Shown: one piece after another, positions 28,419-40,207 of the stretch
How the letters are laid out: each line of letters starts with the position of its first letter
Numbering within the stretch: position 1 is the first letter of the stretch
Assembly: GCA_021831595.1 (NCBI GenBank)
Contig: JAKBMK010000020.1
Span: 2,801 to 66,800 of the forward strand
Reading direction: 5' to 3'
Source: a bacterium
GTDB taxonomy: Bacteria > Patescibacteriota > Minisyncoccia > Phycocordibacterales > UBA9973
Length of the DNA: 64,000 nucleotides
Notes under the pieces: model-generated
Databases searched by the model: none
Told to the model about the DNA's origin: nothing
Seen by the model: the letters and a program-made list of their open reading frames with translations, nothing else
Position numbers and translations under genes: made by a program

Positions 28419-31301
28419 ATGATAAAATATATTAGTATTTTGTATCAAAAAATGAAATCAAAAATACTACAATTTATCAAATTGCATTGGCCTAAAATTA
28501 CATCGATATTTTTATTTATTTTGCTGTCTTTAGCATACGCAAATATTTTTGCTGTCTTTACTCCAGGCGAGACTCTTGATCCAAATTGTGCTCCTGGGAC
28601 AGTTGGTTGTACTGTGAATGTCTCTAGTACAGAGACGGACCCTGTTTGGTCTGTCGACAAACCTAGTTATTCTACAAAAGCAGTTGCTGATACTTTGTAT
28701 AAACTGGCCGGATACACTCCTGACTTATCTGCCTATTCTACCAAGTCTGTGGCCGATACTTTGTATCTCGGTATTAATTCTGTTGCTACAAATTCTTCTA
28801 GCTTAGAAGGTCACAGTGCAAGTTATTTTCAAACTGCTCTAGGCTACACACCATACAACGCAACTAATCCAAATGGTTACATCACAGGTATCACATCTCT
28901 AAATGTTACAACTGCTCTTGGTTTTACTCCTTACAATTCTACAAATCCAAATGGCTATATCTCTTCCTATACAGAAACCGATCCAACTATTTCCGCTTGG
29001 GCAAAAGCAGGAGTCAAACCTTCATATTCTTATTCTGAAATATCATCTACCCCAACTCTACTTTCTCAATTTACAAATGATCTAGGTAACTATGGCGGAT
29101 TCGTCACGGGTACACCATGGACTTCTATGGGTTACTTAACATCCTATACAGAAACAGATCCAACTATTTCCGCTTGGGCGAAGGCTGCTACGAAGCCGAC
29201 GTATACTGCTGCAGAAGTAGGTGCTCCATCTGGTTCTGGAAATTCTACAGGAACAAATACTGGCGACAACGCCGTAAACTCTTTGTATTCAGGTCTAACA
29301 GCGTCTAAACAAGATACATTAAACGGTACAGGATTTGTGAAGTCTACTGCAGGAACTATTTCATACGATACGAATACATACCTCACGAGTATTAATTCTG
29401 GGAATGTTACTACTGCCCTTGGTTATACCCCTTACAATGCCACCAATCCAGCTGGATATATTTCTTCTTATACAGAAACCGATCCTACTATTTCCGCTTG
29501 GGCGAAAGCTGTAACTAAGCCTACTTATACAGCAAGTGAAGTAGGACTTGGTAATGTTCCAAATCTTTCTTTCTCAGGAAGTAACACTGGTGACGAAACG
29601 ACTTCATCTATCAAAACAAAACTCGGACAAGCCAATACCACAACTGATGGATATATATCTTCTGTTGACTGGAATACTTTCAACAACAAGCAACCAGCAG
29701 GAAGTTATCTTACTTCCTACACCGAAACCGATCCTACTGTTTCCGCTTGGGCAAAAGCAGGAGTCAAACCTTCATATTCTTATTCTGAAATATCATCTAC
29801 CCCAACTCTACTTTCTCAATTCACAAATGATCTAGGTAATTACGGAGGATTTGTCACTGGAACTCCATGGACAAGTATGGGTTATGTTACAGGTACTCCA
29901 TGGACTTCTATGGGTTACTTAACATCCTATACAGAAACAGATCCAACTATTTCCGCTTGGGCAAAGGCTCTCGTAAAACCTACATACACAGCAAGCGAAG
30001 TAGGACTTGGTAATGTTACGAATGAGAGTAAGGCTACAATGTTTACAAATCCTACTCTTACAGGTACAACAAATATTGCTAATGTGAGTATTACCGGAAG
30101 TATTATTCCTACGGTAGACAATTTTTATTATCTTGGTTCTCCAGCTTTCAGATGGCATTCTCTTTACGTCGGACCGGGTTCTATCTATGTTAACGGACAG
30201 AAAGTTCTTCAGACAGATATGTCGAACAGTGTCGTTATGTCTGCTGATGATGCTCAAAATGTTATTGTTAAAACTACAGGTGGAGGAAATATCGAGCTCA
30301 ATCCTGCTTCAGGTGGTGGAGGAATATTACTCAAGAGTAATGTCACTTTGACTGCAGGCAAATCATTTAGAACTTCTGACTTAACTCCTGTTGTATTTTC
30401 AGATGGCACAAAATCGGGGAATATAAATATCATAGGGAATACGATTTCATCAGGAAACACAAATGGAGATATTGAATTTGCTCCGAATGGAGCCGGGAGA
30501 ACATATGTATCTTCTGGTAATTTTGGAATTGGTAATACTGCTCCAGGGGAAAAGTTAAGTGTCACTGGCAACATTCTCGCCACTGGTACCATCTTGGGTT
30601 CAAATATTTCAGGGAACACAAGTGGCACCAACACTGGTGACAATGCAGTGAACTCTCTATACAGTGGACTTGCATCTTCAAAACAAGATGTACTAAGTGG
30701 TACAGGATTTGTGAAGTCTACTGCAGGAACTATTTCATATGACACGAATACATACCTCACAACGGCATCAGCAGGTTCAACTTACATTCCTTATACAGGC
30801 GGTACTTCAAACGTTGATCTTGGAGCTCATAATCTTACAGTTGATACAAATACACTTTTTGTTGACGCCACAAACCATAAAGTAGGTATTGGGATGACAA
30901 ATCCGAATTATGTTTTGGATATTGCTGGTAATGGAATTCAAGTAACAAGAAGTGGTTCAAACCCATCTGTTATTTTGAGCTCTACTGGTTATACAGGAAG
31001 TGCTGGAGACACAGTTGGCTCATTAGCATTTCGTGGAAATGATAATAGTGCCTCAAATGTTTTGTTTGGTTCTATAAATGGATTCGATGTCGTTCCTACT
31101 GCTGGAGCTGTAACTGGTGGAATTAATTTTAAAGTTCCAGTAGCTGGTACTCTTACTGAAATTATGAGAATAAATGGGAATAATGTCGGAATTGGAATTA
31201 CAAACCCATTTTCTCCATTGAGTGTTGTTAGTGGAGAACAAGAAACTGCAACTGCATTTTTCCATCAAAACGCTCCAACTAATAAACCAACATACACATA
31301 A
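28419..31301 (+). CDS. giant fibre-like surface protein, N-terminal segment (probably the same gene as 31424-39049)
   Basis: 960 aa; N-terminal signal anchor; at least 6 copies of YTETDPT[IV]SAWAKA modules; the C-terminus already begins GNNVGIGITNP-type repeats. Confidence 0.75.
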   Translation: MIKYISILYQKMKSKILQFIKLHWPKITSIFLFILLSLAYANIFAVFTPGETLDPNCAPGTVGCTVNVSSTETDPVWSVDKPSYSTKAVADTLYKLAGYTPDLSAYSTKSVADTLYLGINSVATNSSSLEGHSASYFQTALGYTPYNATNPNGYITGITSLNVTTALGFTPYNSTNPNGYISSYTETDPTISAWAKAGVKPSYSYSEISSTPTLLSQFTNDLGNYGGFVTGTPWTSMGYLTSYTETDPTISAWAKAATKPTYTAAEVGAPSGSGNSTGTNTGDNAVNSLYSGLTASKQDTLNGTGFVKSTAGTISYDTNTYLTSINSGNVTTALGYTPYNATNPAGYISSYTETDPTISAWAKAVTKPTYTASEVGLGNVPNLSFSGSNTGDETTSSIKTKLGQANTTTDGYISSVDWNTFNNKQPAGSYLTSYTETDPTVSAWAKAGVKPSYSYSEISSTPTLLSQFTNDLGNYGGFVTGTPWTSMGYVTGTPWTSMGYLTSYTETDPTISAWAKALVKPTYTASEVGLGNVTNESKATMFTNPTLTGTTNIANVSITGSIIPTVDNFYYLGSPAFRWHSLYVGPGSIYVNGQKVLQTDMSNSVVMSADDAQNVIVKTTGGGNIELNPASGGGGILLKSNVTLTAGKSFRTSDLTPVVFSDGTKSGNINIIGNTISSGNTNGDIEFAPNGAGRTYVSSGNFGIGNTAPGEKLSVTGNILATGTILGSNISGNTSGTNTGDNAVNSLYSGLASSKQDVLSGTGFVKSTAGTISYDTNTYLTTASAGSTYIPYTGGTSNVDLGAHNLTVDTNTLFVDATNHKVGIGMTNPNYVLDIAGNGIQVTRSGSNPSVILSSTGYTGSAGDTVGSLAFRGNDNSASNVLFGSINGFDVVPTAGAVTGGINFKVPVAGTLTEIMRINGNNVGIGITNPFSPLSVVSGEQETATAFFHQNAPTNKPTYT

Positions 31302-31423
31302 GACAAACAGGGGCAGGAGGTAATGCAAACGTTAACCAAGGATTATTAGTACAAGTTCAAGGAAATGTAAGTAGTAATATAGCAGATTTTGCTTACTGGG
31401 ATGGAGCAACTTCAACAAGCAGA

Positions 31424-34400
31424 ATGATAATTAGACAAAATGGTAATGTTGGAATCGGGATTTCTGCTCCGGCAAATACGTTGCAGGTAGGAGGACTTGT
31501 TAGTTGGGGTAGTGCATCCTCTCGCTATGGAATTTTGGATTACGCAACAGGGAAGGCAATGCTCTATGGCACATCTGGCAATGCTTTAAGTCTTGGTGCA
31601 AATGGGACAGGAGATTATTTGTATATAACAACCGCAGGACTGGTCGGTATAGGCACTGTCAGTCCAACACAAATAATGCATATATACGGCACTTCTATTC
31701 GTCCACAAATTGAAAGTACCGCTAATGGCGGTTATAGTTCGTTGCGGTTTGTGGGGAAAAATAGTGCAGGGACAGCAAGGGTATTTGAAGTTGGGTTAAA
31801 CATAACAGCAGATGATGTTTGGCAAATAACAGATGGTAGTAGTACTTTTGTAAATGTGAACACCTCTGGCAATGTTGGAATTGGAACTGCGGCACCTTCT
31901 ACAAAATTGGAGGTTGTTGGAACAGCACTTATAGGTAACTTAGCCAATACTATTTCAACCCCAAGTGTTAGATTTTCTGGAGTTGGTATTTATCATCCAG
32001 ATACAAATTACTATGGTGATTATGCTGGATTATTATTGAATGCATCTAGTGCTTGGACAGGTTCTGCAAAAAGATTCCTTATTACAAATGCATTAAATGC
32101 AAACAAATTTGCAATTATAAGAAGTGTAGATTCATCAACTGATCCAGCACTTGGAACTGCTGGTGCTGTTTCTTCTGGTACTGCAGATTTTGTTATTGAT
32201 GCATCTGGTAACATCGGAATCGGGACAACAAGTCCATCACATAAACTTACAGTTACCGGTGGTAACTTAGCAGTAGAAAATGGAAATATGTATTTAGCTT
32301 CAGGTTACCCACTTTATTTTGATTATGGAATTACAAATGATTATTCTATTGCAAAAAGTGGTACAGTTTTGCAATTAAACACAGCTGGCTCGTTTGCAAT
32401 GATGGGTGGTAACGTCGGAATCGGGACGACGAGTCCATCAACAAACTTAGAGATATATGGCTCTAGTCCTATATTAAAAGTAACTCAAAATCCAGGCGTT
32501 GCTGGTGGGGGAACTATTGCTTTGACCGCAGCTGGAGTTGGTTCAGATACAAATGCTGCTACTTTAAATTTATATAATGGTTCTCTTTGGAGTAGAACTG
32601 ATGGATCAGGCATAAGATTTGGTAGTGCAGATAAAACTTCAACATGGGGGATTCTTGGGAGTAATGTTGGTGTCGGAACAACGAATCCTACAGAAAGATT
32701 AGATGTTGTTGGTAATGCGAAAATTTCATCGACGTTACTTCTTGAAGGGCAATATGTTGATTTTTATAATACAAACCCAACATTTAGAGTTGTTACTGGT
32801 CCTGGTACATTCTTAATTGGTGATGATGACAATGTCTCTTTATCTTCCGGTAGATTTTTTGTGAAAAATAACGGCAATATCGGTATCGGCACTACGAGTC
32901 CACAAAATAAATTACAGATTGCAAATGGTGGAATATATTTAACATCGGATAATTTTGATACAGATGGAATTCATCAGCCACTTGCATGGAATCCTAGCTC
33001 CAGTAATTTACAACAATCAATTATTGGTAGTGTAAATTCTGATTATGCAGATACAAGTAGTACAGGAGGAACTCTCGGTATTCGTATAGGTGCAAATGGT
33101 GGATTGTATGAAGGAGTCCCAGGATATATGAATGCAGGTATGCAAGCATTGATTTATGGAAATGGAGGAGATGGGGCTAAGGGTGGAGGATATCTTCAAT
33201 TTTTGACAAAAGATAATACTACTTCATATTCTGCAAATGGAGATGTGCGGATGACCATAAACCCAATTGGTAATGTCGGTATCGGGACGACAACACCGGT
33301 ATCTTTGCTTGGATTAACACACGGTAAGATTACCGTTGGACAGGGGGCTAATGATAAAGCAGAACTACAAGGTGGAACAGGATTTGGTGCTTTGTTGAGA
33401 TTATATGAAGGATCAGGAGGAACAGAAACTGTCAGATTAGATGCCGGTGGTGGTGGAGGAACAAGCTGGATAACAAGTGGTAACGTTGGTATTGGAACGA
33501 CGAGTCCAGATAATAAACTTTCTGTAGTAGCAGGTGGAGCGGCTGGTGGTTTTAGTCAAGGGTTAAGTATCATAACAGGGAATAATTCTTATACAACAGG
33601 ACATGGTGGAATGCTCCAATTTCAAAATGAAGATGTTGTAACTGCTGGGATTAGAGGGGTAAGAGAAGATAGTTGGAAATCGGGATTAAGTTTCTATACT
33701 CACAGTTCAGGTGTTGGTAATACTTTTGATTCAACTTTCTTAGAAAGAATGAGAATAGATGGTAATGGTAATGTTGGAATAGGGACGACGGGGGCACTGA
33801 CTAAGCTGGATGTAAATGGAGTTATTGGTAAAAGACATACAGTTGCTGGTACAGTTGCATCTCCATCCGTTGAAGGCGCTTTACAATTCGTCACTGGTGA
33901 TACTTCAACATTACTTGATGTAGGAATGTTTTTTGTAAATGAATTTTTTAATAATAATGCTGCTTATATGGCATTCAAAACTAGAGATGCGGATACTACA
34001 ATCAGGACAGCAATGACAATATATAAAAATGGTAATGTTGGAATCGGGACAACGAGTCCAAGTCAAAAATTACAAGTTGCTGGGAATATTGCTCTTGATG
34101 CAGAACTAACAGAAAGATTTATACGCATAGCAGGGTCTTATGGTGGAGCTATAAGATTCAGAGGTAATGCTAGTGCTGTTGACGATAGATCACTTCAATT
34201 TGGAACGATGGATGGGAATAATTTGTTTACCCCAAGAATGATCGTAGACACAAACAGTGGTAACGTTGGTATTGGAACAGTAACTCCTGCAAAAACACTT
34301 GAAGTTAATGGTGATATTATGGCTAGTAGTAGTGGTAAGATAGGATTTAGATATTCAGGTGCAGATAATAATTTTTATAGTTATATAGAAGGATATCCAG

Positions 34401-37400
34401 CTGGTGGTGCTCTTACTCTTGCGGGAGGATTGTGGACAAGTTCTGCTACACAAAAAGCTATTACTTTCAAGACTCAAGGAGTAGCAGACGCAATGTCTAT
34501 TTTGAATAATGGAAATGTCGGTATCGGTACGACGAGTCCACAAACGAAACTTTCTGTTTCTAATGGAGGGAGTCAAAATATTGAGATTGATCCAGGTTTT
34601 ATTCAAAGCTTCAATCGTACTACTCCAGGTTATGCTGCTTTACCATTTTATGGAAGTAATTTTAGTTTTAATGTTGGTAATGTCGGAATCGGAACAACGA
34701 ATCCTACATATCCATTAGAAATTAAATCAGCAGTAGGTGCTGGAGCTTTAGCTTTAGTAGGGAGAGATGCTGATAATGTCTCATCTTTTGAATTTTTAAA
34801 TAGTGGAAAAACTTCTAGCGCTTATATCCAAGGTAATGGTTCATGGATAAGATCCAGAGCAGATGGAGGGTTTCATTTCTCAAAAGGATCTACTCCTATA
34901 GTTACAGGAACTGATTTTACAATAGAAGGTTTGAATGTCGGTATTGGAACAACTTCTCCAAATGCAAAACTTGATGTGGCTGGAATCATCAGATCAAATG
35001 CTTCGAATGTAGGTACTTTAAATCTTGGTTCAGATTCATTCAGTAGTACATACACAACTGCTCAAATAATAGGGTCAACCTCTCCTTCATATACAAGTAC
35101 TGGTAAATTATCTTTTAAAGTTTTAACTTGGGGTGTTAATACTGATTATGGTTTAACAGAACAGATGTATATTGATGTTCCTGGTGCTGATTCAAAAGCT
35201 GCAACTATAGTGATGGCACCATATGGTGGCAATGTGGGAATTGGCACGACAAGTCCTCAGTATTCTTTGCATTCTCCGGGGAGTGCATCATTTGGTTTAG
35301 GATCAGAACTACTTTTGAATAATAGTAGTTTTGAATCGGATACTTCTTCTCCTCCAAGTAGTTGGTCCAATCTGGGGAATACCACAGGTACAGCTGTCGT
35401 AGACGGATCTGCTCCTTCGGGGAATAATGTTGCGGAAGTAGTTGCGACTGGTAGTGGAACTATTGGGTATAATGCTTTTAAAACAGCCTCACCATTAGTA
35501 TTAGGCAAGACTTACAAGATTACTTATTATGCTAAAAGTATTAGTGGTGGAACAACGATAAGTCTAGGTATCCAAGCAACAGTTGATTATCAGTATAACC
35601 AAGCCATTTCTACTTCATGGTCTCAGTATTCAGTAACACACACAGGAACAATTAATCCGATGACTATTGGTTTTTCTTCTGCTAGTGGGGCAGCAACTTT
35701 TAGGGTTGATAATATTTCGGTAAAAGAAGTAAATAATCTTTATGTTGGAACAAATGGAAGTGTAGGTATTGGATCTACATCACCAATAAGTGTTCTTGAA
35801 GTTAAAAGTGCTGCTCCAATTTTGACAATTAATGGAACTGACAACTCACAATTCAAAGGAATTAATTTTGCAACGCTTGGAAGCGTGCAAGCTAGTTTGT
35901 TGTCGAATATTGCAACAGGAGAACTGAAACTTCAATCAGGTACTTCTGGTTTCGGTGGATTTATGACATTTAATTTAGATGGTAGTGAGAGAATGAGAAT
36001 TCAAGCAACAACAGGTAATGTAGGTATTGGAACAACGGCACCAGGAGCGAAGTTTGAAACATCTAGTGTTTCAAGTGGTTTAGTTTGGAATGGAATTTTA
36101 AGAAATGACTATAATGCCAATGCAACAAATTATGGAGTCGGATTGAAATTAAAAGTTAGTAGCGATGGAGTGCCAAATGAAATTAATAAATGGGTAGGTC
36201 TTGCTGCTGTAGCTGGCAGTACATATTCTAATAGGACAGATTTGGCCTTGTATACATCTGCATCATCAGCAACAGACCCAACTGAGAAAATGCGAATTGA
36301 TGGAAACGGTAATGTTGGAATTGGAACACAAACTCCTGGAGCAAAATTAGATGTAATTGGAAATATTTATCTAAGTTCAGCTAATCCTTATGGTGGTTCG
36401 AGTGTTTATAATGTCCAAAAAGAGCAAAATGTTAGCAGCGCAAGTGTGGCTGGAGCGGGATGGTATCGTGTTGCTCAGCTTGGGGATGTACGTGGACAAA
36501 ACACAGTTACTATTTACACCACAGGAGGAAGTTATGCCCCACAAAGTACAACGATAAGATGGTGGCATGATTGGTCAGCTCAAGGTGGATTAAATGTCAT
36601 TTCAGAATTTGGTTCTAGCTTTTGGAGTCAAGCACGAGTGACAAGTGATGGCATAACTAATTCATATTTGGAAGTTTACTTTAATCAAGCTATGGCAGGT
36701 GGTGTCTATCTTTCAATGCAATATGATGGAGGTTTTGCAAAAGGATCACTTTATAGTGGGTCTTTGCCTGTTGGTGGTGATACAGTAAGAATGACTACAA
36801 CAACTGGATTACTGTCTGTTGGGGACAAATTGACTATAAATAATTCTGGCAACGTTGGAATTGGAATAACAAGCCCAAGCCAAAAATTAGATGTAAACGG
36901 TATTCTTAAAATAGAAGGACAGGCTAGTTCGACCTTTAATTCAACCTCGCAAGGAATTTCTTTCTTTGCTGGTAATGATAACTATAAGATTGGTTTTGAT
37001 AGTCAAGCTGGATCAAGGGGTTATATTCGTTACAACGTAGATACGAATGATAGTGTTCACGGACATATTTTTTCAGCTGGTGCATCAGGAAGTCAAACAG
37101 ACTTAATGACAATTCTAGGTAACGGCAACGTCGGGATTGGTACGGCGAATCCAGGGACAAAACTTGATATCCAAGGAGCGATAAATACTTCCCCTGTATC
37201 AATAGCACAATCTGGCGCAGCAAACAATACATTCGGTGATTATATAGGTCTTGATTTCAAGATGTCAAACGAGATGTCGCAGTATACGGGCAATCCTGCA
37301 GCGAGAATCTCAGCGTATCTGGAAGGAGGAAGCAATGGTTACGGATTGGATTTTTGGACGAAGCTCGATGCAGCAAACTTTAGCAAGGCAATGAGGATAA

Positions 37401-39049
37401 ACAGGTATGGCAACGTAGGTATTGGGACAACAAGCCCGGGAGAAAAGTTGCATATATATCAAGCTTCAGGAGAGCCTCATTTAGCATTAGAATCTGGCGA
37501 TTCAAACGCAGGAATATATATTAAAGCAGCAGCTGCAGCGTTTCCTTATATTAGATTTTATCAGGGTGGAGTAGGAAAATTTGAAATGGGAAAAGTTGCT
37601 TCGAATGGAAATTTTTACTTCAACAATACAACAGCATCTGGAGAAACAAATGCAACGATGGTAATTTCATCTGGTGGCAACGTCGGAATTGGAACAACGA
37701 GTCCGGATTATAAACTAACCGTAAATAGTTCAGGGAATACAAGTTCAGCTGCAAGTGCGTTGCATGGTCAATATTATGGACCGATGATTTCTACTGGACA
37801 AACAAGTTCGAGTTATTATGCTTTGAATATTACCAATAATGCATCAAGTCCAGGAACAGGAAATTCAATTTTTTATGTAAGAGCTGATGGTAATATTGGT
37901 ATCGGAACGACAAATCCTAGAGCAAGTTTAGAAATTGCTGGTGGTATTAGGGTGGCTGATGGTGTATACGGCGTTTCAAATAGTGCTGGTAATCAAATAT
38001 TAGCATCGTCGAGTGGCAGTAATTATCTATATAGCAGAACTTCTGGCAACCTTATAATCAGAAATGGTGCGGATTCAGCTGAGTTGTTAAGAATTACAGA
38101 TTCCGGTAACGTTGGGATTGGTACAACCAGCCCAAATCAGAAATTGGAAGTCAGTGGCACGATTAGACAAAGTGGTTGTACTACAGCGGGAACGATATCG
38201 GTCAATGCATCAGGAGATATTATATGTACTCCTTCATCAATCAGTTTCAAGAATACTAGAGAAGATTTAGAAGTAGGCTTGCAGACTTTGATACAACTAA
38301 AGCCAGTATCGTACAAATTCAATGACAATATGGATATGGGCGAGAAGACTCACTTCGGATTCATTTCAGAAGAAGTCGACTATGTTCTCCCTGAGCTTGC
38401 AACTCATGATAAAGACGGCAAGCCTTATGGCCTTGATACCAATGCGATTCTTGCGGTGACAGTAAACGCTGTGAAGGAGCTCAATACCAAAGTCGAAGAA
38501 ATGAATTTGAAGATTTCTGACTTGTCATCACTCGACACTACGAAGGCCACTTCACTCGGAAGTTTGATAAAGACTTTCCTAGCAGATGAATACAACAGAG
38601 TCGAAAAGATATTTGCCAAGACTGTCGTCACCGAAGGCCTCGAGATGAAAGATAGCGCAACAGGCGAGACATATTGCGTAATGGTCACAAATGGGGAAAT
38701 AAACAAAGTGAAAGGGAAGTGTGGCGAGCCTATTGTCGCTCCAGCTTCACAAGCAGCTTCGCCTGTAGTTTCTACTCTTCCTACTCCTAGTTGTACTGAC
38801 GGCATAATGAATCAAGACGAGACGGGGATAGATACGGGTGGTATATGCGATGTCCCAGTACTTGCGGATATGACTGCATACGATAATGCTCTTGCTGCAA
38901 AAGTTGAAGCGGACTATACGACAGATAGTTGGGCTCTCTACAAAGCAGTTCTCGATGCCAACATCGTCACAAATACTAATACTCAAGTCGAAGTCGACAC
39001 CGCCGTTGCCAACATCACCTCCGCCCAGGGAAGTCTAATTCCAAATTAA
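31424..39049 (+). CDS. giant fibre-like surface protein: about 25 GNVGIGTTSP repeats, CBM4_9-like insert, Peptidase_S74-like intramolecular chaperone domain, FIVAR-like C-terminus
   Basis: 2541 aa; this frame is open from 31286, overlapping the upstream ORF by 15 nt. Repeat starts G-N-V-G-I-G-T-T-S-P-x-x-K-L-[DE]-V. CBM at roughly nt 35300-35730 (NSSFE...GKTYKITYYAKS...FRVDNISV). S74-like at roughly 38230-38530 (LQTLIQLKPVSYKFND...FGFISEEVDYVLPELA...GLDTNAILAVTVNAVKELN). FIVAR-like at roughly 38870-39040. Confidence 0.8.
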   Translation: MIIRQNGNVGIGISAPANTLQVGGLVSWGSASSRYGILDYATGKAMLYGTSGNALSLGANGTGDYLYITTAGLVGIGTVSPTQIMHIYGTSIRPQIESTANGGYSSLRFVGKNSAGTARVFEVGLNITADDVWQITDGSSTFVNVNTSGNVGIGTAAPSTKLEVVGTALIGNLANTISTPSVRFSGVGIYHPDTNYYGDYAGLLLNASSAWTGSAKRFLITNALNANKFAIIRSVDSSTDPALGTAGAVSSGTADFVIDASGNIGIGTTSPSHKLTVTGGNLAVENGNMYLASGYPLYFDYGITNDYSIAKSGTVLQLNTAGSFAMMGGNVGIGTTSPSTNLEIYGSSPILKVTQNPGVAGGGTIALTAAGVGSDTNAATLNLYNGSLWSRTDGSGIRFGSADKTSTWGILGSNVGVGTTNPTERLDVVGNAKISSTLLLEGQYVDFYNTNPTFRVVTGPGTFLIGDDDNVSLSSGRFFVKNNGNIGIGTTSPQNKLQIANGGIYLTSDNFDTDGIHQPLAWNPSSSNLQQSIIGSVNSDYADTSSTGGTLGIRIGANGGLYEGVPGYMNAGMQALIYGNGGDGAKGGGYLQFLTKDNTTSYSANGDVRMTINPIGNVGIGTTTPVSLLGLTHGKITVGQGANDKAELQGGTGFGALLRLYEGSGGTETVRLDAGGGGGTSWITSGNVGIGTTSPDNKLSVVAGGAAGGFSQGLSIITGNNSYTTGHGGMLQFQNEDVVTAGIRGVREDSWKSGLSFYTHSSGVGNTFDSTFLERMRIDGNGNVGIGTTGALTKLDVNGVIGKRHTVAGTVASPSVEGALQFVTGDTSTLLDVGMFFVNEFFNNNAAYMAFKTRDADTTIRTAMTIYKNGNVGIGTTSPSQKLQVAGNIALDAELTERFIRIAGSYGGAIRFRGNASAVDDRSLQFGTMDGNNLFTPRMIVDTNSGNVGIGTVTPAKTLEVNGDIMASSSGKIGFRYSGADNNFYSYIEGYPAGGALTLAGGLWTSSATQKAITFKTQGVADAMSILNNGNVGIGTTSPQTKLSVSNGGSQNIEIDPGFIQSFNRTTPGYAALPFYGSNFSFNVGNVGIGTTNPTYPLEIKSAVGAGALALVGRDADNVSSFEFLNSGKTSSAYIQGNGSWIRSRADGGFHFSKGSTPIVTGTDFTIEGLNVGIGTTSPNAKLDVAGIIRSNASNVGTLNLGSDSFSSTYTTAQIIGSTSPSYTSTGKLSFKVLTWGVNTDYGLTEQMYIDVPGADSKAATIVMAPYGGNVGIGTTSPQYSLHSPGSASFGLGSELLLNNSSFESDTSSPPSSWSNLGNTTGTAVVDGSAPSGNNVAEVVATGSGTIGYNAFKTASPLVLGKTYKITYYAKSISGGTTISLGIQATVDYQYNQAISTSWSQYSVTHTGTINPMTIGFSSASGAATFRVDNISVKEVNNLYVGTNGSVGIGSTSPISVLEVKSAAPILTINGTDNSQFKGINFATLGSVQASLLSNIATGELKLQSGTSGFGGFMTFNLDGSERMRIQATTGNVGIGTTAPGAKFETSSVSSGLVWNGILRNDYNANATNYGVGLKLKVSSDGVPNEINKWVGLAAVAGSTYSNRTDLALYTSASSATDPTEKMRIDGNGNVGIGTQTPGAKLDVIGNIYLSSANPYGGSSVYNVQKEQNVSSASVAGAGWYRVAQLGDVRGQNTVTIYTTGGSYAPQSTTIRWWHDWSAQGGLNVISEFGSSFWSQARVTSDGITNSYLEVYFNQAMAGGVYLSMQYDGGFAKGSLYSGSLPVGGDTVRMTTTTGLLSVGDKLTINNSGNVGIGITSPSQKLDVNGILKIEGQASSTFNSTSQGISFFAGNDNYKIGFDSQAGSRGYIRYNVDTNDSVHGHIFSAGASGSQTDLMTILGNGNVGIGTANPGTKLDIQGAINTSPVSIAQSGAANNTFGDYIGLDFKMSNEMSQYTGNPAARISAYLEGGSNGYGLDFWTKLDAANFSKAMRINRYGNVGIGTTSPGEKLHIYQASGEPHLALESGDSNAGIYIKAAAAAFPYIRFYQGGVGKFEMGKVASNGNFYFNNTTASGETNATMVISSGGNVGIGTTSPDYKLTVNSSGNTSSAASALHGQYYGPMISTGQTSSSYYALNITNNASSPGTGNSIFYVRADGNIGIGTTNPRASLEIAGGIRVADGVYGVSNSAGNQILASSSGSNYLYSRTSGNLIIRNGADSAELLRITDSGNVGIGTTSPNQKLEVSGTIRQSGCTTAGTISVNASGDIICTPSSISFKNTREDLEVGLQTLIQLKPVSYKFNDNMDMGEKTHFGFISEEVDYVLPELATHDKDGKPYGLDTNAILAVTVNAVKELNTKVEEMNLKISDLSSLDTTKATSLGSLIKTFLADEYNRVEKIFAKTVVTEGLEMKDSATGETYCVMVTNGEINKVKGKCGEPIVAPASQAASPVVSTLPTPSCTDGIMNQDETGIDTGGICDVPVLADMTAYDNALAAKVEADYTTDSWALYKAVLDANIVTNTNTQVEVDTAVANITSAQGSLIPN

Positions 39050-39128: not shown

Positions 39129-39608
39129 ATGTCTATTGTAAGAGAAATATTAGATGAACTTTGGAATACAGAATACAATTACAAGGGAGTAAGGGTAAAT
39201 ATTTTTGGTATTCCGCGATTTAAAAAATATTCTGATAGTAGTTTACAACGAACGATAAATCGTTTAAAAGAGAAAGGAATAATAGAAAAAGAATTATCTG
39301 GAATTGTGCTTTCTAAATATGGTAAAAAATATTATCAGAAAAAGTTTGATTCTCTAAAACAATTTGAAAGACCCAAGAATCAACCCAAAGAGCGGAAACT
39401 CTTGGTAATGTTTGATGTTCCAACAGAAAAGAAGGGCGAGAGGGAATGGCTCCGCTGGCATTTAAAGAAATTCGATTATATTATGATTCAGCAAAGTGTC
39501 TGGGTTGGCCCATCACCACTACCTAAGGAATTTACTGAGTATTTAAAGAGTATAAAGCTGGATAGATGTATTAAGACTTTCAAACTAGAAAAACCATATT
39601 TTATTTAA
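39129..39608 (+). CDS. PaaX-like transcriptional regulator (wHTH plus PaaX_C-like domain)
   Basis: 159 aa; C-terminal KLLVMFDVPTEKKGEREWLRWHLKKFDYIMIQQSVWVGP matches the PaaX_C pattern (W..D.PE...R..LR..L...GF..L..SVW..P). Confidence 0.55.
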   Translation: MSIVREILDELWNTEYNYKGVRVNIFGIPRFKKYSDSSLQRTINRLKEKGIIEKELSGIVLSKYGKKYYQKKFDSLKQFERPKNQPKERKLLVMFDVPTEKKGEREWLRWHLKKFDYIMIQQSVWVGPSPLPKEFTEYLKSIKLDRCIKTFKLEKPYFI

Positions 39609-39685: not shown

Positions 39686-40207
39686 TTATTTGCACAGTTC
39701 GAAAAATTCTTTTTCGGTGGATTCGTCGATTTTATCAGTGACGATGATGATGAGTTCGGTAGAAAGATTTAAATCTTTTTTGATATTTGTAAAGAGATGC
39801 TCAAAAGGATATACAGATATCCAAACAGAATTTTTGAGGCAAGTGAATCCTGCTTTTTTGAGTAAGTAGCGAAGAGCTTCACGCTCACTCTTTCTTTCTT
39901 CTGGCATATCGAGAAGTATTATTCTCCAAAATCCATCCCAAGTATTACTTACTATGGCATTATCGCACTCAAGCTTGAGACTGTTGGCCTTCTTCTTGCC
40001 TTCTTTTGTAAGTTTGGCGTATTTATTCTGGCCAGAGTCCACACTTTCTATGAGTCCTGCGTCTTTTAGACCCTTTATAGAGCGATTTAGAGCATACTGG
40101 CTATCCTTATCTAGGGCAATCTTGTCTTCTAGTTCAGAGACGGAAACAGCCGGTCTTTCGGACAGGATTTTGATAATTTTCTTTGAAAAATCACGCTTTT
40201 TTAACAT
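39686..40207 (-). CDS. PaaX-like transcriptional regulator (paralog), divergent from dnaK
   Basis: 173 aa; N-terminal wHTH; C-terminal WDGFWRIILLDMPEERKSEREALRYLLKKAGFTCLKNSVWISVYP. Confidence 0.6.
   Translation of the reverse strand: MLKKRDFSKKIIKILSERPAVSVSELEDKIALDKDSQYALNRSIKGLKDAGLIESVDSGQNKYAKLTKEGKKKANSLKLECDNAIVSNTWDGFWRIILLDMPEERKSEREALRYLLKKAGFTCLKNSVWISVYPFEHLFTNIKKDLNLSTELIIIVTDKIDESTEKEFFELCK

Follow-up and report, generated by a model that had tools for sequence, protein, structure and literature searches.

A single frame change divides a predicted giant S74-type fibre gene between grpE and dnaK of a Nomurabacteria-like bacterium

The divided gene and its junction

The window, a stretch of 64,000 nucleotides (nt) from contig JAKBMK010000020.1 of assembly GCA_021831595.1 (positions 2,801 to 66,800 of the forward strand), belongs to an uncultured Nomurabacteria-like bacterium of the Candidate Phyla Radiation (CPR) and shows, between grpE and dnaK, a 10.6-kb gene predicted to encode a secreted giant fibre. 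This gene is distributed over two plus-strand open reading frames (ORFs), ORF1 and ORF2, which on sequence evidence are two halves of one ancestral gene. All positions are those of the window, and the features around the junction of both frames are the following:

28419-31301, plus strand: ORF1, N-terminal part of the fibre gene, 960 codons and TAA, or 949 amino acids (aa) with the alternative start at 28452
31179-31441, plus strand: junction-straddling repeat unit, which starts NNVGIGITNPFSPLSVV... in the ORF1 frame and has 88 residues when fused
31283-31285, plus strand: TAA in the -1 (ORF2) frame, upstream limit of the ORF2 frame
31284-31298, plus strand: interval that must hold the frame change, AAA CCA ACA TAC ACA, with limits set by both stops
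31286-31423, plus strand: part of the ORF2 frame before its ATG, open and coding-like, without ATG, GTG or TTG
31299-31301, plus strand: ORF1 stop codon TAA, produced by the frame change
31424-39049, plus strand: ORF2 as called, 2541 codons, with about 24 further units initiated by GNVGIGTTSP, a CBM_4_9 module, a Peptidase_S74 domain and a C-terminal tail

The coordinates that the original prediction gave for the ORF1 stop (31299-31301), the opening of the second frame (31286) and its ATG (31424) were confirmed in the sequence, and the translations quoted there, GNNVGIGITNP at the end of ORF1 and GNANVNQGLLVQVQGNVSSNIADFAYWDGATS before the ATG, are exact. The overlap of the two frames, put at 15 nt, had to be corrected: it comprises 13 nt before the stop codon and 16 nt including it, reads AAA CCA ACA TAC ACA TAA and has a longest run of 3 nt (AAA). 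ORF1 has the C-terminus ...EIMRINGNNVGIGITNPFSPLSVVSGEQETATAFFHQNAPTNKPTYT and ends ...NAPTNKPTYT*. The -1 frame stays open between 31286 and 39049, over 2587 codons. None of ATG, GTG and TTG occurs in it before the ATG at 31424, which is preceded in this frame by TNIHIRQTGAGGNANVNQGLLVQVQGNVSSNIADFAYWDGATSTSR.

Units of 55-221 residues, each opening with GN(V/I)GIG(T)T(S)P, make up the final third of ORF1 and almost the whole of ORF2. The unit opening at NNVGIGITNP has no end in ORF1, and it is the ORF2 frame that provides ...TSTSRMIIRQN, followed by GNVGIGISAP. As had been predicted, the repeat style thus continues across the junction, in a unit of 88 residues which starts in ORF1 and ends in ORF2. 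A hidden Markov model (HMM) of 18 other units, from which the straddling unit was left out, gives 42.8 bits for the fused unit, 19.5 for the ORF1 tail and 25.9 for the ORF2 head, the score of the fused unit being approximately the sum of the other two. Alignments to the homologous proteins P0003, P0004 and P0005 pass through this unit. The 122-nt gap at 31302-31423 shows a codon-usage log-odds of +24.9 in the ORF2 frame and of -30.9 and -57.5 in the other two; in-frame windows of 120 nt from ORF2 show 19.1 +/- 8.1. By a rough estimate, the chance of an open stretch of 46 codons before the ATG is about 0.04 at this base composition. Applied to just the 45 residues before the ATG, the unit HMM gives a score no higher than the best of the listed shuffles, since the units diverge too much in their variable middle, so that the case for coding there rests on codon usage and on the pairwise alignment with P0004.

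Its upstream context gives the ATG at 31424 the look of an internal methionine codon rather than of a start: the G+C fraction of the preceding 25 nt is 0.48, versus 0.21 +/- 0.10 at 36 other gene starts, and it is 0.40 +/- 0.09 upstream of 40 internal ATGs of ORF2. Its methionine is the conserved one of the repeat motif '(E)RMRI..GNVGIG', and no excess of promoter-like or terminator-like sites was found. The functional parts are also divided, with the only signal peptide in ORF1 and both CBM_4_9 and Peptidase_S74 in ORF2. Units, codon usage and homologues agree with the original prediction of one gene that is split by a single frame change and whose halves a -1 frameshift or an indel of one base would join.

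Enumeration of the one-base insertions that restore the frame gives 32 distinct proteins, all of them stop-free and all from insertions within 31284-31298. The ORF2-frame peptide IHIRQTG (31292-31312) matches the 'h-x-h-x-x-G' strand pattern, as do LRFVGKN, ISFFAGN and INFATLG, and LKFAGQS in P0004. Since it fits this pattern of the units, the ancestral frame would already have been that of ORF2 from about 31292, and the lesion would lie before this point; the likeliest lesion is probably one base lost from the short runs AAA, CC or AA at 31284-31291.

The junction does not show the defining features of programmed frameshift, transcriptional-slippage or contingency sites. The statement of the original prediction that the overlap contains no X_XXY_YYZ heptamer holds on direct reading, and none of the P-site codons of the overlap is able to re-pair in the -1 frame. 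Nor is there a downstream RNA structure in the 123 nt from the junction, which show a minimum free energy of -15.8 kcal/mol versus -15.97 +/- 2.64 for shuffles (z = 0.06). No upstream stimulator similar to a Shine-Dalgarno (SD) sequence was found, the genes of this genome being without SD; no tract of identical A or T bases reaching 6-9 nt, as in transcriptional slippage, lies within 100 nt of the junction; and the interval 31284-31298, with a longest run of 3 nt, contains no homopolymer or short tandem repeat tract of contingency type. A +1 shift at the stop codon, similar to that of prfB, was rejected since it leads into the wrong frame.

The same junction recurs in other samples. Eight contigs, which come from seven samples, encode exactly the ORF2 product: ENA ERZ27236928 and ERZ27237183, NCBI GCA_021786835.1 and GCA_027351505.1, and Logan SRR22746137, SRR22746138 and SRR13178629. 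A stretch of 251 nt across the junction is identical in nine of nine contig extracts (L001, L002 and L022-L028), and the junction is shared by MEGAHIT (k141), Logan and two NCBI metagenome-assembled genome (MAG) assemblies, from at least three runs and two accession series. The copies bearing it form three haplotypes. L001 differs from the window by four single-nucleotide polymorphisms (SNPs) in 20.6 kb, and L002 by a few SNPs and an in-frame contraction of 750 nt between the 186-nt direct repeats of ORF1. In the haplotype of GCA_027351505.1 the contraction of 750 nt (250 aa) leaves an ORF1 of 699 aa. This contraction is either a real repeat recombination or an assembly collapse. The haplotype diversity is 0.02-0.1%, and the junction is carried only by near-identical copies (at least 99.9%).

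Fibre protein, homologues and locus

The further features of the fibre gene, all from the plus strand, are:

28452-28541, plus strand: predicted Sec signal peptide or N-terminal anchor, from translation, MKSKILQFIKLHWPKITSIFLFILLSLAYA with N after the predicted cleavage site
28956-29141 and 29706-29891, plus strand: direct repeat pair in ORF1, 186 nt each, 89% identical, spaced 750 nt
35312-35644, plus strand: CBM_4_9 carbohydrate-binding module, E = 2.2e-7, 31.7 bits (curated cut-off 25.9), embedded among fibre repeats
38234-38398, plus strand: Peptidase_S74 (endosialidase-type) intramolecular-chaperone domain, E = 8.4e-7, 29.6 bits (cut-off 22)

ORF1 contains short repeats of the TETDPT(I/V)SAWAKA type, a conserved domain with the pattern 'SIIP..YxLGSP..W..LYVG..IYVNGQ' and the first GN(V/F)GIG units. 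Apart from its predicted signal peptide or anchor, KSK...ITSIFLFILLSLAYA before the N of the predicted cleavage site, the gene has no export signal, and no signal peptide is visible in the ORF2 translation. The high-identity DNA repeats of the gene occupy 28867-30760, and the junction is outside them. A Pfam scan of the whole protein at E <= 0.01 had not picked up the CBM_4_9 module. The Peptidase_S74 (PF13884) match covers residues 2319-2371 of the frame opening at 31286 (window 38240-38398) and is above the Pfam gathering score. The S-x4-K dyad, with the serine at 38234-38236 and the lysine at 38249-38251, is invariant in the alignment with the SDxRLK homologues (P0003, P0005 and the ORF of L012, a related locus described below); the motif is SSISFK here and is a predicted autocleavage site. 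The tail of about 215 residues after this domain (38399-39046) is well conserved with the L012 fibre, with the shared consensus SSLDTT.ATSLGS.IK.F...EKIFAKT.VTEG..MKD..TGE.YCV...NGE..K.KGKCGE. A PDB sequence search of the C-terminus gave only weak matches (E >= 0.024), and the weak similarity of the tail to type IV pilin structures (1qve, E = 0.024) is probably due to chance. The NCBIfam scan of both ORFs gave only a sub-threshold EutS match, which was taken as chance. A single-sequence AlphaFold2 model of fused residues 861-1160, in which a trimeric fibre fold was probed, has a mean predicted local distance difference test (pLDDT) score of 39.3, which is unusably low.

Relatives of giant size were taken from a search of the representatives in a library of 1.84 billion proteins. 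Another search for homologous proteins reported none beyond 1,391 aa; ORF2 (2541 aa, 100% identical to half the query), although in the collection, was not among its results, so that this search gives false negatives for giant relatives. The closest multi-domain homologue, P0005, has in one chain the TETDPT(I/V)SAWAK repeats, a 'SIIP..LGSP..LYVG..IYVNGQ' domain of the ORF1 type, GNVGIG units and S74, and aligns with fused residues 346-1432 in a single high-scoring segment pair (HSP; E = 1e-96). Its gene (ENA ERZ1426827, 474-4493 of 9302) opens 473 nt into the contig with an internal-looking repeat, MGYVTGTPWTLMGYLTSFTETDPT..., and P0005 itself may be split or lack its N-terminus. Among the library representatives, those nearest to the ORF1-type domain are P0123, P0124, P0128 and P0131 (49-63% identity), the N-terminal regions of the first three being 60-63% identical to it; these four proteins are single chains of 1,856-2,504 aa with a similar signal peptide, and S74 is near the C-terminus in P0123 and P0131. 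P0133 (3,776 aa) aligns with fused residues 555-1511 in one HSP. The best matched stretch crosses the junction in about 19-21 of the best 148 non-self representatives.

All the informative homologues are single chains, and two separate genes at this boundary were not seen among the relatives found. The original prediction had named two things that together would refute it: confirmation of the sequence by high-quality reads, in place of which its recurrence across assemblies was observed, and related genomes with two separate genes, which were not found, so that the single-gene reading stands. The fused product is not among the representatives of the 1.84-billion-protein library, in which no exact look-up of the 32 restored variants was made. 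A scan of JGI metagenomes with the junction peptide gave 65 pattern matches and no relatives; the organism is not represented in that collection. Two homologues, P0067 and P0119, are annotated as 'tail fiber domain-containing proteins', and the literature on giant fibres of CPR bacteria yielded nothing specific.

The S74 chaperone works in cis until it is cleaved off, and fibres of this kind depend on it to fold and trimerise. Homologues have both ends of the fibre in one polypeptide; in the present allele the frame change parts the signal peptide and 960 residues from S74. Since the homologues are single polypeptides, the ancestral gene is, on its sequence, a member of the cellular S74 'tail fiber domain-containing' proteins, which are common in Patescibacteria and occur in other bacteria too, and the present allele a disrupted member. 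It shares with them the GNVGIGTTSP-type array, a C-terminal S74 above the Pfam cut-off and the Ser/Lys dyad, and differs from them in being split by a frameshift, in its 3,543 fused codons, in the embedded CBM_4_9, in the tail of about 215 residues after S74 and in its position between grpE and dnaK, not in a prophage.

The gene order of the locus is S13-S11-S4-rpoA-L17-L13-S9, an ORF of 146 aa, grpE, ORF1, ORF2, two PaaX_M/Cas2-like genes, dnaK and dnaJ, and the locus is bacterial chromosome rather than phage. The two PaaX_M/Cas2-like genes are divergent in sequence and lie tail to tail beside the fibre gene:

39129-39608, plus strand: extra PaaX_M/Cas2-like gene, 33-38% identical to the minus-strand homologues and found only alongside the giant gene
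39686-40207, minus strand: conserved PaaX_M/Cas2-like gene, 55-88% identical to the copies of relatives

The GrpE relatives (52-83% identity) are from MAGs labelled Candidatus Nomurabacteria, Paceibacterota or Patescibacteria. Comparison with orthologous loci, which the original prediction had proposed, shows one ORF of 1445 aa in the same slot of L012 and no fibre gene there in 15 relatives. In all 15 relatives whose fetched locus extends past grpE, the minus-strand PaaX_M-like gene comes directly after it, and dnaK is next in 14 of them, the L005 locus ending earlier. Since grpE is followed directly by the PaaX_M-like gene in these 15 relatives, the lineage-specific insertion comprises the fibre gene and the additional PaaX_M-like gene of the plus strand. 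The single ORF of L012 (CAZLXA010000002.1, 10663-15000) lies in the same grpE/PaaX/dnaK slot. Its N-terminus is 59.6% identical to ORF1 over residues 21-70, including the signal peptide, its S74 and tail are 38.6% identical to the end of ORF2 over 207 residues, and its central repeats are of a different type. A different fibre at the same site, which shares only the ends (signal-peptide N-terminus; S74 and tail), suggests a cassette-like variable locus with conserved ends.

Gene starts in the window are without SD motifs, for instance upstream of 5048, 15510, 24482, 39129 and 54682, and at several of them a box resembling TATAAT precedes the ATG by no more than about 6-10 nt, which points to leaderless mRNAs, or mRNAs with a very short leader, in this organism.

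Explanations of the frame change

The explanation favoured here, with a probability of about 0.7, is a recent one-base deletion, fixed in a near-clonal population and leaving a null or truncated allele; the event is an ordinary interrupted coding sequence. Of the three options offered in the original prediction, a recent pseudogenising mutation is the one that fits best. The ancestral gene, of about 3,543 codons, would have encoded a secreted giant fibre or adhesin with the following layout: signal peptide, stalk of short repeats, about 26 beta-rich units initiated by GNVGIG, CBM_4_9, C-terminal Peptidase_S74 and tail. A single-base deletion within 31284-31298, in a near-clonal Nomurabacteria/Paceibacterota-like population, would have shifted the frame inside a loop of the unit at fused residues 921-1008, which is the second GNVGIG unit in the final array. 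Ribosomes would then stop at 31299-31301 and give an exported stub of 960 aa without the CBM and the folding and trimerisation chaperone, and the 2,587 downstream codons would be untranslated or translated in traces through spontaneous slippage. Loss of function, a deletion as the direction of the mutation and its recency are what we infer from the sequence, the recency because the downstream 7.7 kb show no second lesion. Interrupted or young-pseudogene surface genes such as the long pilus genes in Atkins et al. (2016; PMC5009743) are similar in that a single frame change splits a long gene of adhesin type, the downstream part is intact and there is no canonical recoding signal; the present case differs in that it is located in a CPR chromosome, concerns an S74-type fibre and is known from sequence alone.

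Several observations weigh against this explanation. The downstream frame of 7.7 kb is fully intact and the S74 Ser/Lys dyad is conserved, as in a sequence that is still used. An intact frame is equally expected if the lesion is no older than the haplotype diversity of 0.02-0.1%, as neutral divergence would have to reach about 0.3% before a first secondary stop is expected (rough estimate). The homologue searches found no close orthologue with an intact junction, that is, with the ancestral sequence. The contigs may partly share read sets, so that they are not seven fully independent observations, and, being assembled sequences, they are compatible with minority intact alleles or low-level frameshifting.

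The intact downstream frame, with its conserved S74 dyad and CBM, would also be expected from compensatory or programmed recoding, in which some ribosomes shift by -1 in 31284-31298 or hop over the TAA and make the full-length fibre, the gene being a 'pseudo-pseudogene'. For a hop there is a matched take-off codon beside the stop, ACA at 31296-31298, with a landing ACA 8 nt further in the ORF2 frame (31307-31309), and the product would read ...NKPTYTGAGGNANVNQ...; an unconfirmed hop in an adhesin gene of Prevotella, like interrupted pilus genes, has been discussed as a possible case of a 'pseudo-pseudogene' (Atkins et al., 2016; PMC5009743). The overlapping 0/-1 ORFs and the sensible fusion protein are as in the programmed -1 frameshifting of dnaX, IS elements and phage tail assembly chaperones, and the take-off codon adjoining the stop is as in the bypassing of T4 gene 60, but the slippery heptamer, the stimulatory structure and the SD-like element of these systems are absent here, as is a P-site codon that re-pairs in the -1 frame. 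Moreover, a matching ACA is nothing unusual in a stretch so rich in A and C, the hop would remove the conserved IHIRQT strand, and the junction is known from one clonal lineage only. Recoding is thus unlikely, and still more doubtful is a split that is functional as such, the bacterium making the 3,543-residue fibre by signal-less -1 slippage or a stop-hop (ACA-TAA...ACA) and so keeping a costly adhesin very low or regulated. A reversible indel toggling the fibre ON and OFF, with the sampled populations OFF, would suit a large adhesin-like surface gene at a variable, cassette-like locus, with a lesion that is probably within short mononucleotide runs and an intact downstream ORF. Contingency loci of Neisseria, Haemophilus and Mycoplasma, in which a one-base indel likewise silences a surface fibre gene, switch by means of long homopolymers or short tandem repeats; the runs here, of 2-3 nt with AAA as the longest, are far shorter, no ON allele was seen among the contigs, all nine of the nine extracts and the three haplotypes being OFF, and no fused product is among the library representatives, all of which makes phase variation quite improbable.

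That gene callers report two ORFs, and that an ATG opens the second, agrees with a genuine two-part protein, in which ORF2 would be translated from 31424 and act together with ORF1. This option of the original prediction is highly doubtful: the ATG lies 46 codons into an open, coding-like frame, inside a repeat motif; its upstream G+C fraction is far from that of real starts (0.48 vs 0.21); ORF2 would have no signal peptide and ORF1 no S74 chaperone; there is no credible start context; and the informative homologues are all single chains. The other option, a sequencing or assembly indel in a genome whose gene is intact, might be thought of for a long, repeat-rich gene in a metagenome assembly, some contigs of which may share read sets. 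Since the junction is identical in nine extracts from seven samples, two run series and three haplotypes, as well as across assemblies, and the site is neither a long homopolymer nor within the high-identity repeats, such an error is very unlikely, the least probable of the explanations considered, and the frame change would be genuinely in the genome.

Meaning of the disrupted allele

For annotation, the two products deposited from this lineage as 'hypothetical proteins', one of 949, 960 or 699 aa and the other of 2541 aa, should be regarded as parts of a single giant S74-type fibre gene that has been disrupted, and the 2541-aa product should not be taken as a native protein with a real N-terminus. 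The region between grpE and dnaK is pointed to as a variable fibre locus. Recoding, if true, would be a rare use of signal-less frameshifting in CPR bacteria. According to the favoured explanation, a near-clonal Nomurabacteria population present in several samples would be without, or almost without, its largest surface fibre, the one bearing a carbohydrate-binding module, and this loss could, speculatively, affect host attachment or phage evasion in an episymbiont.

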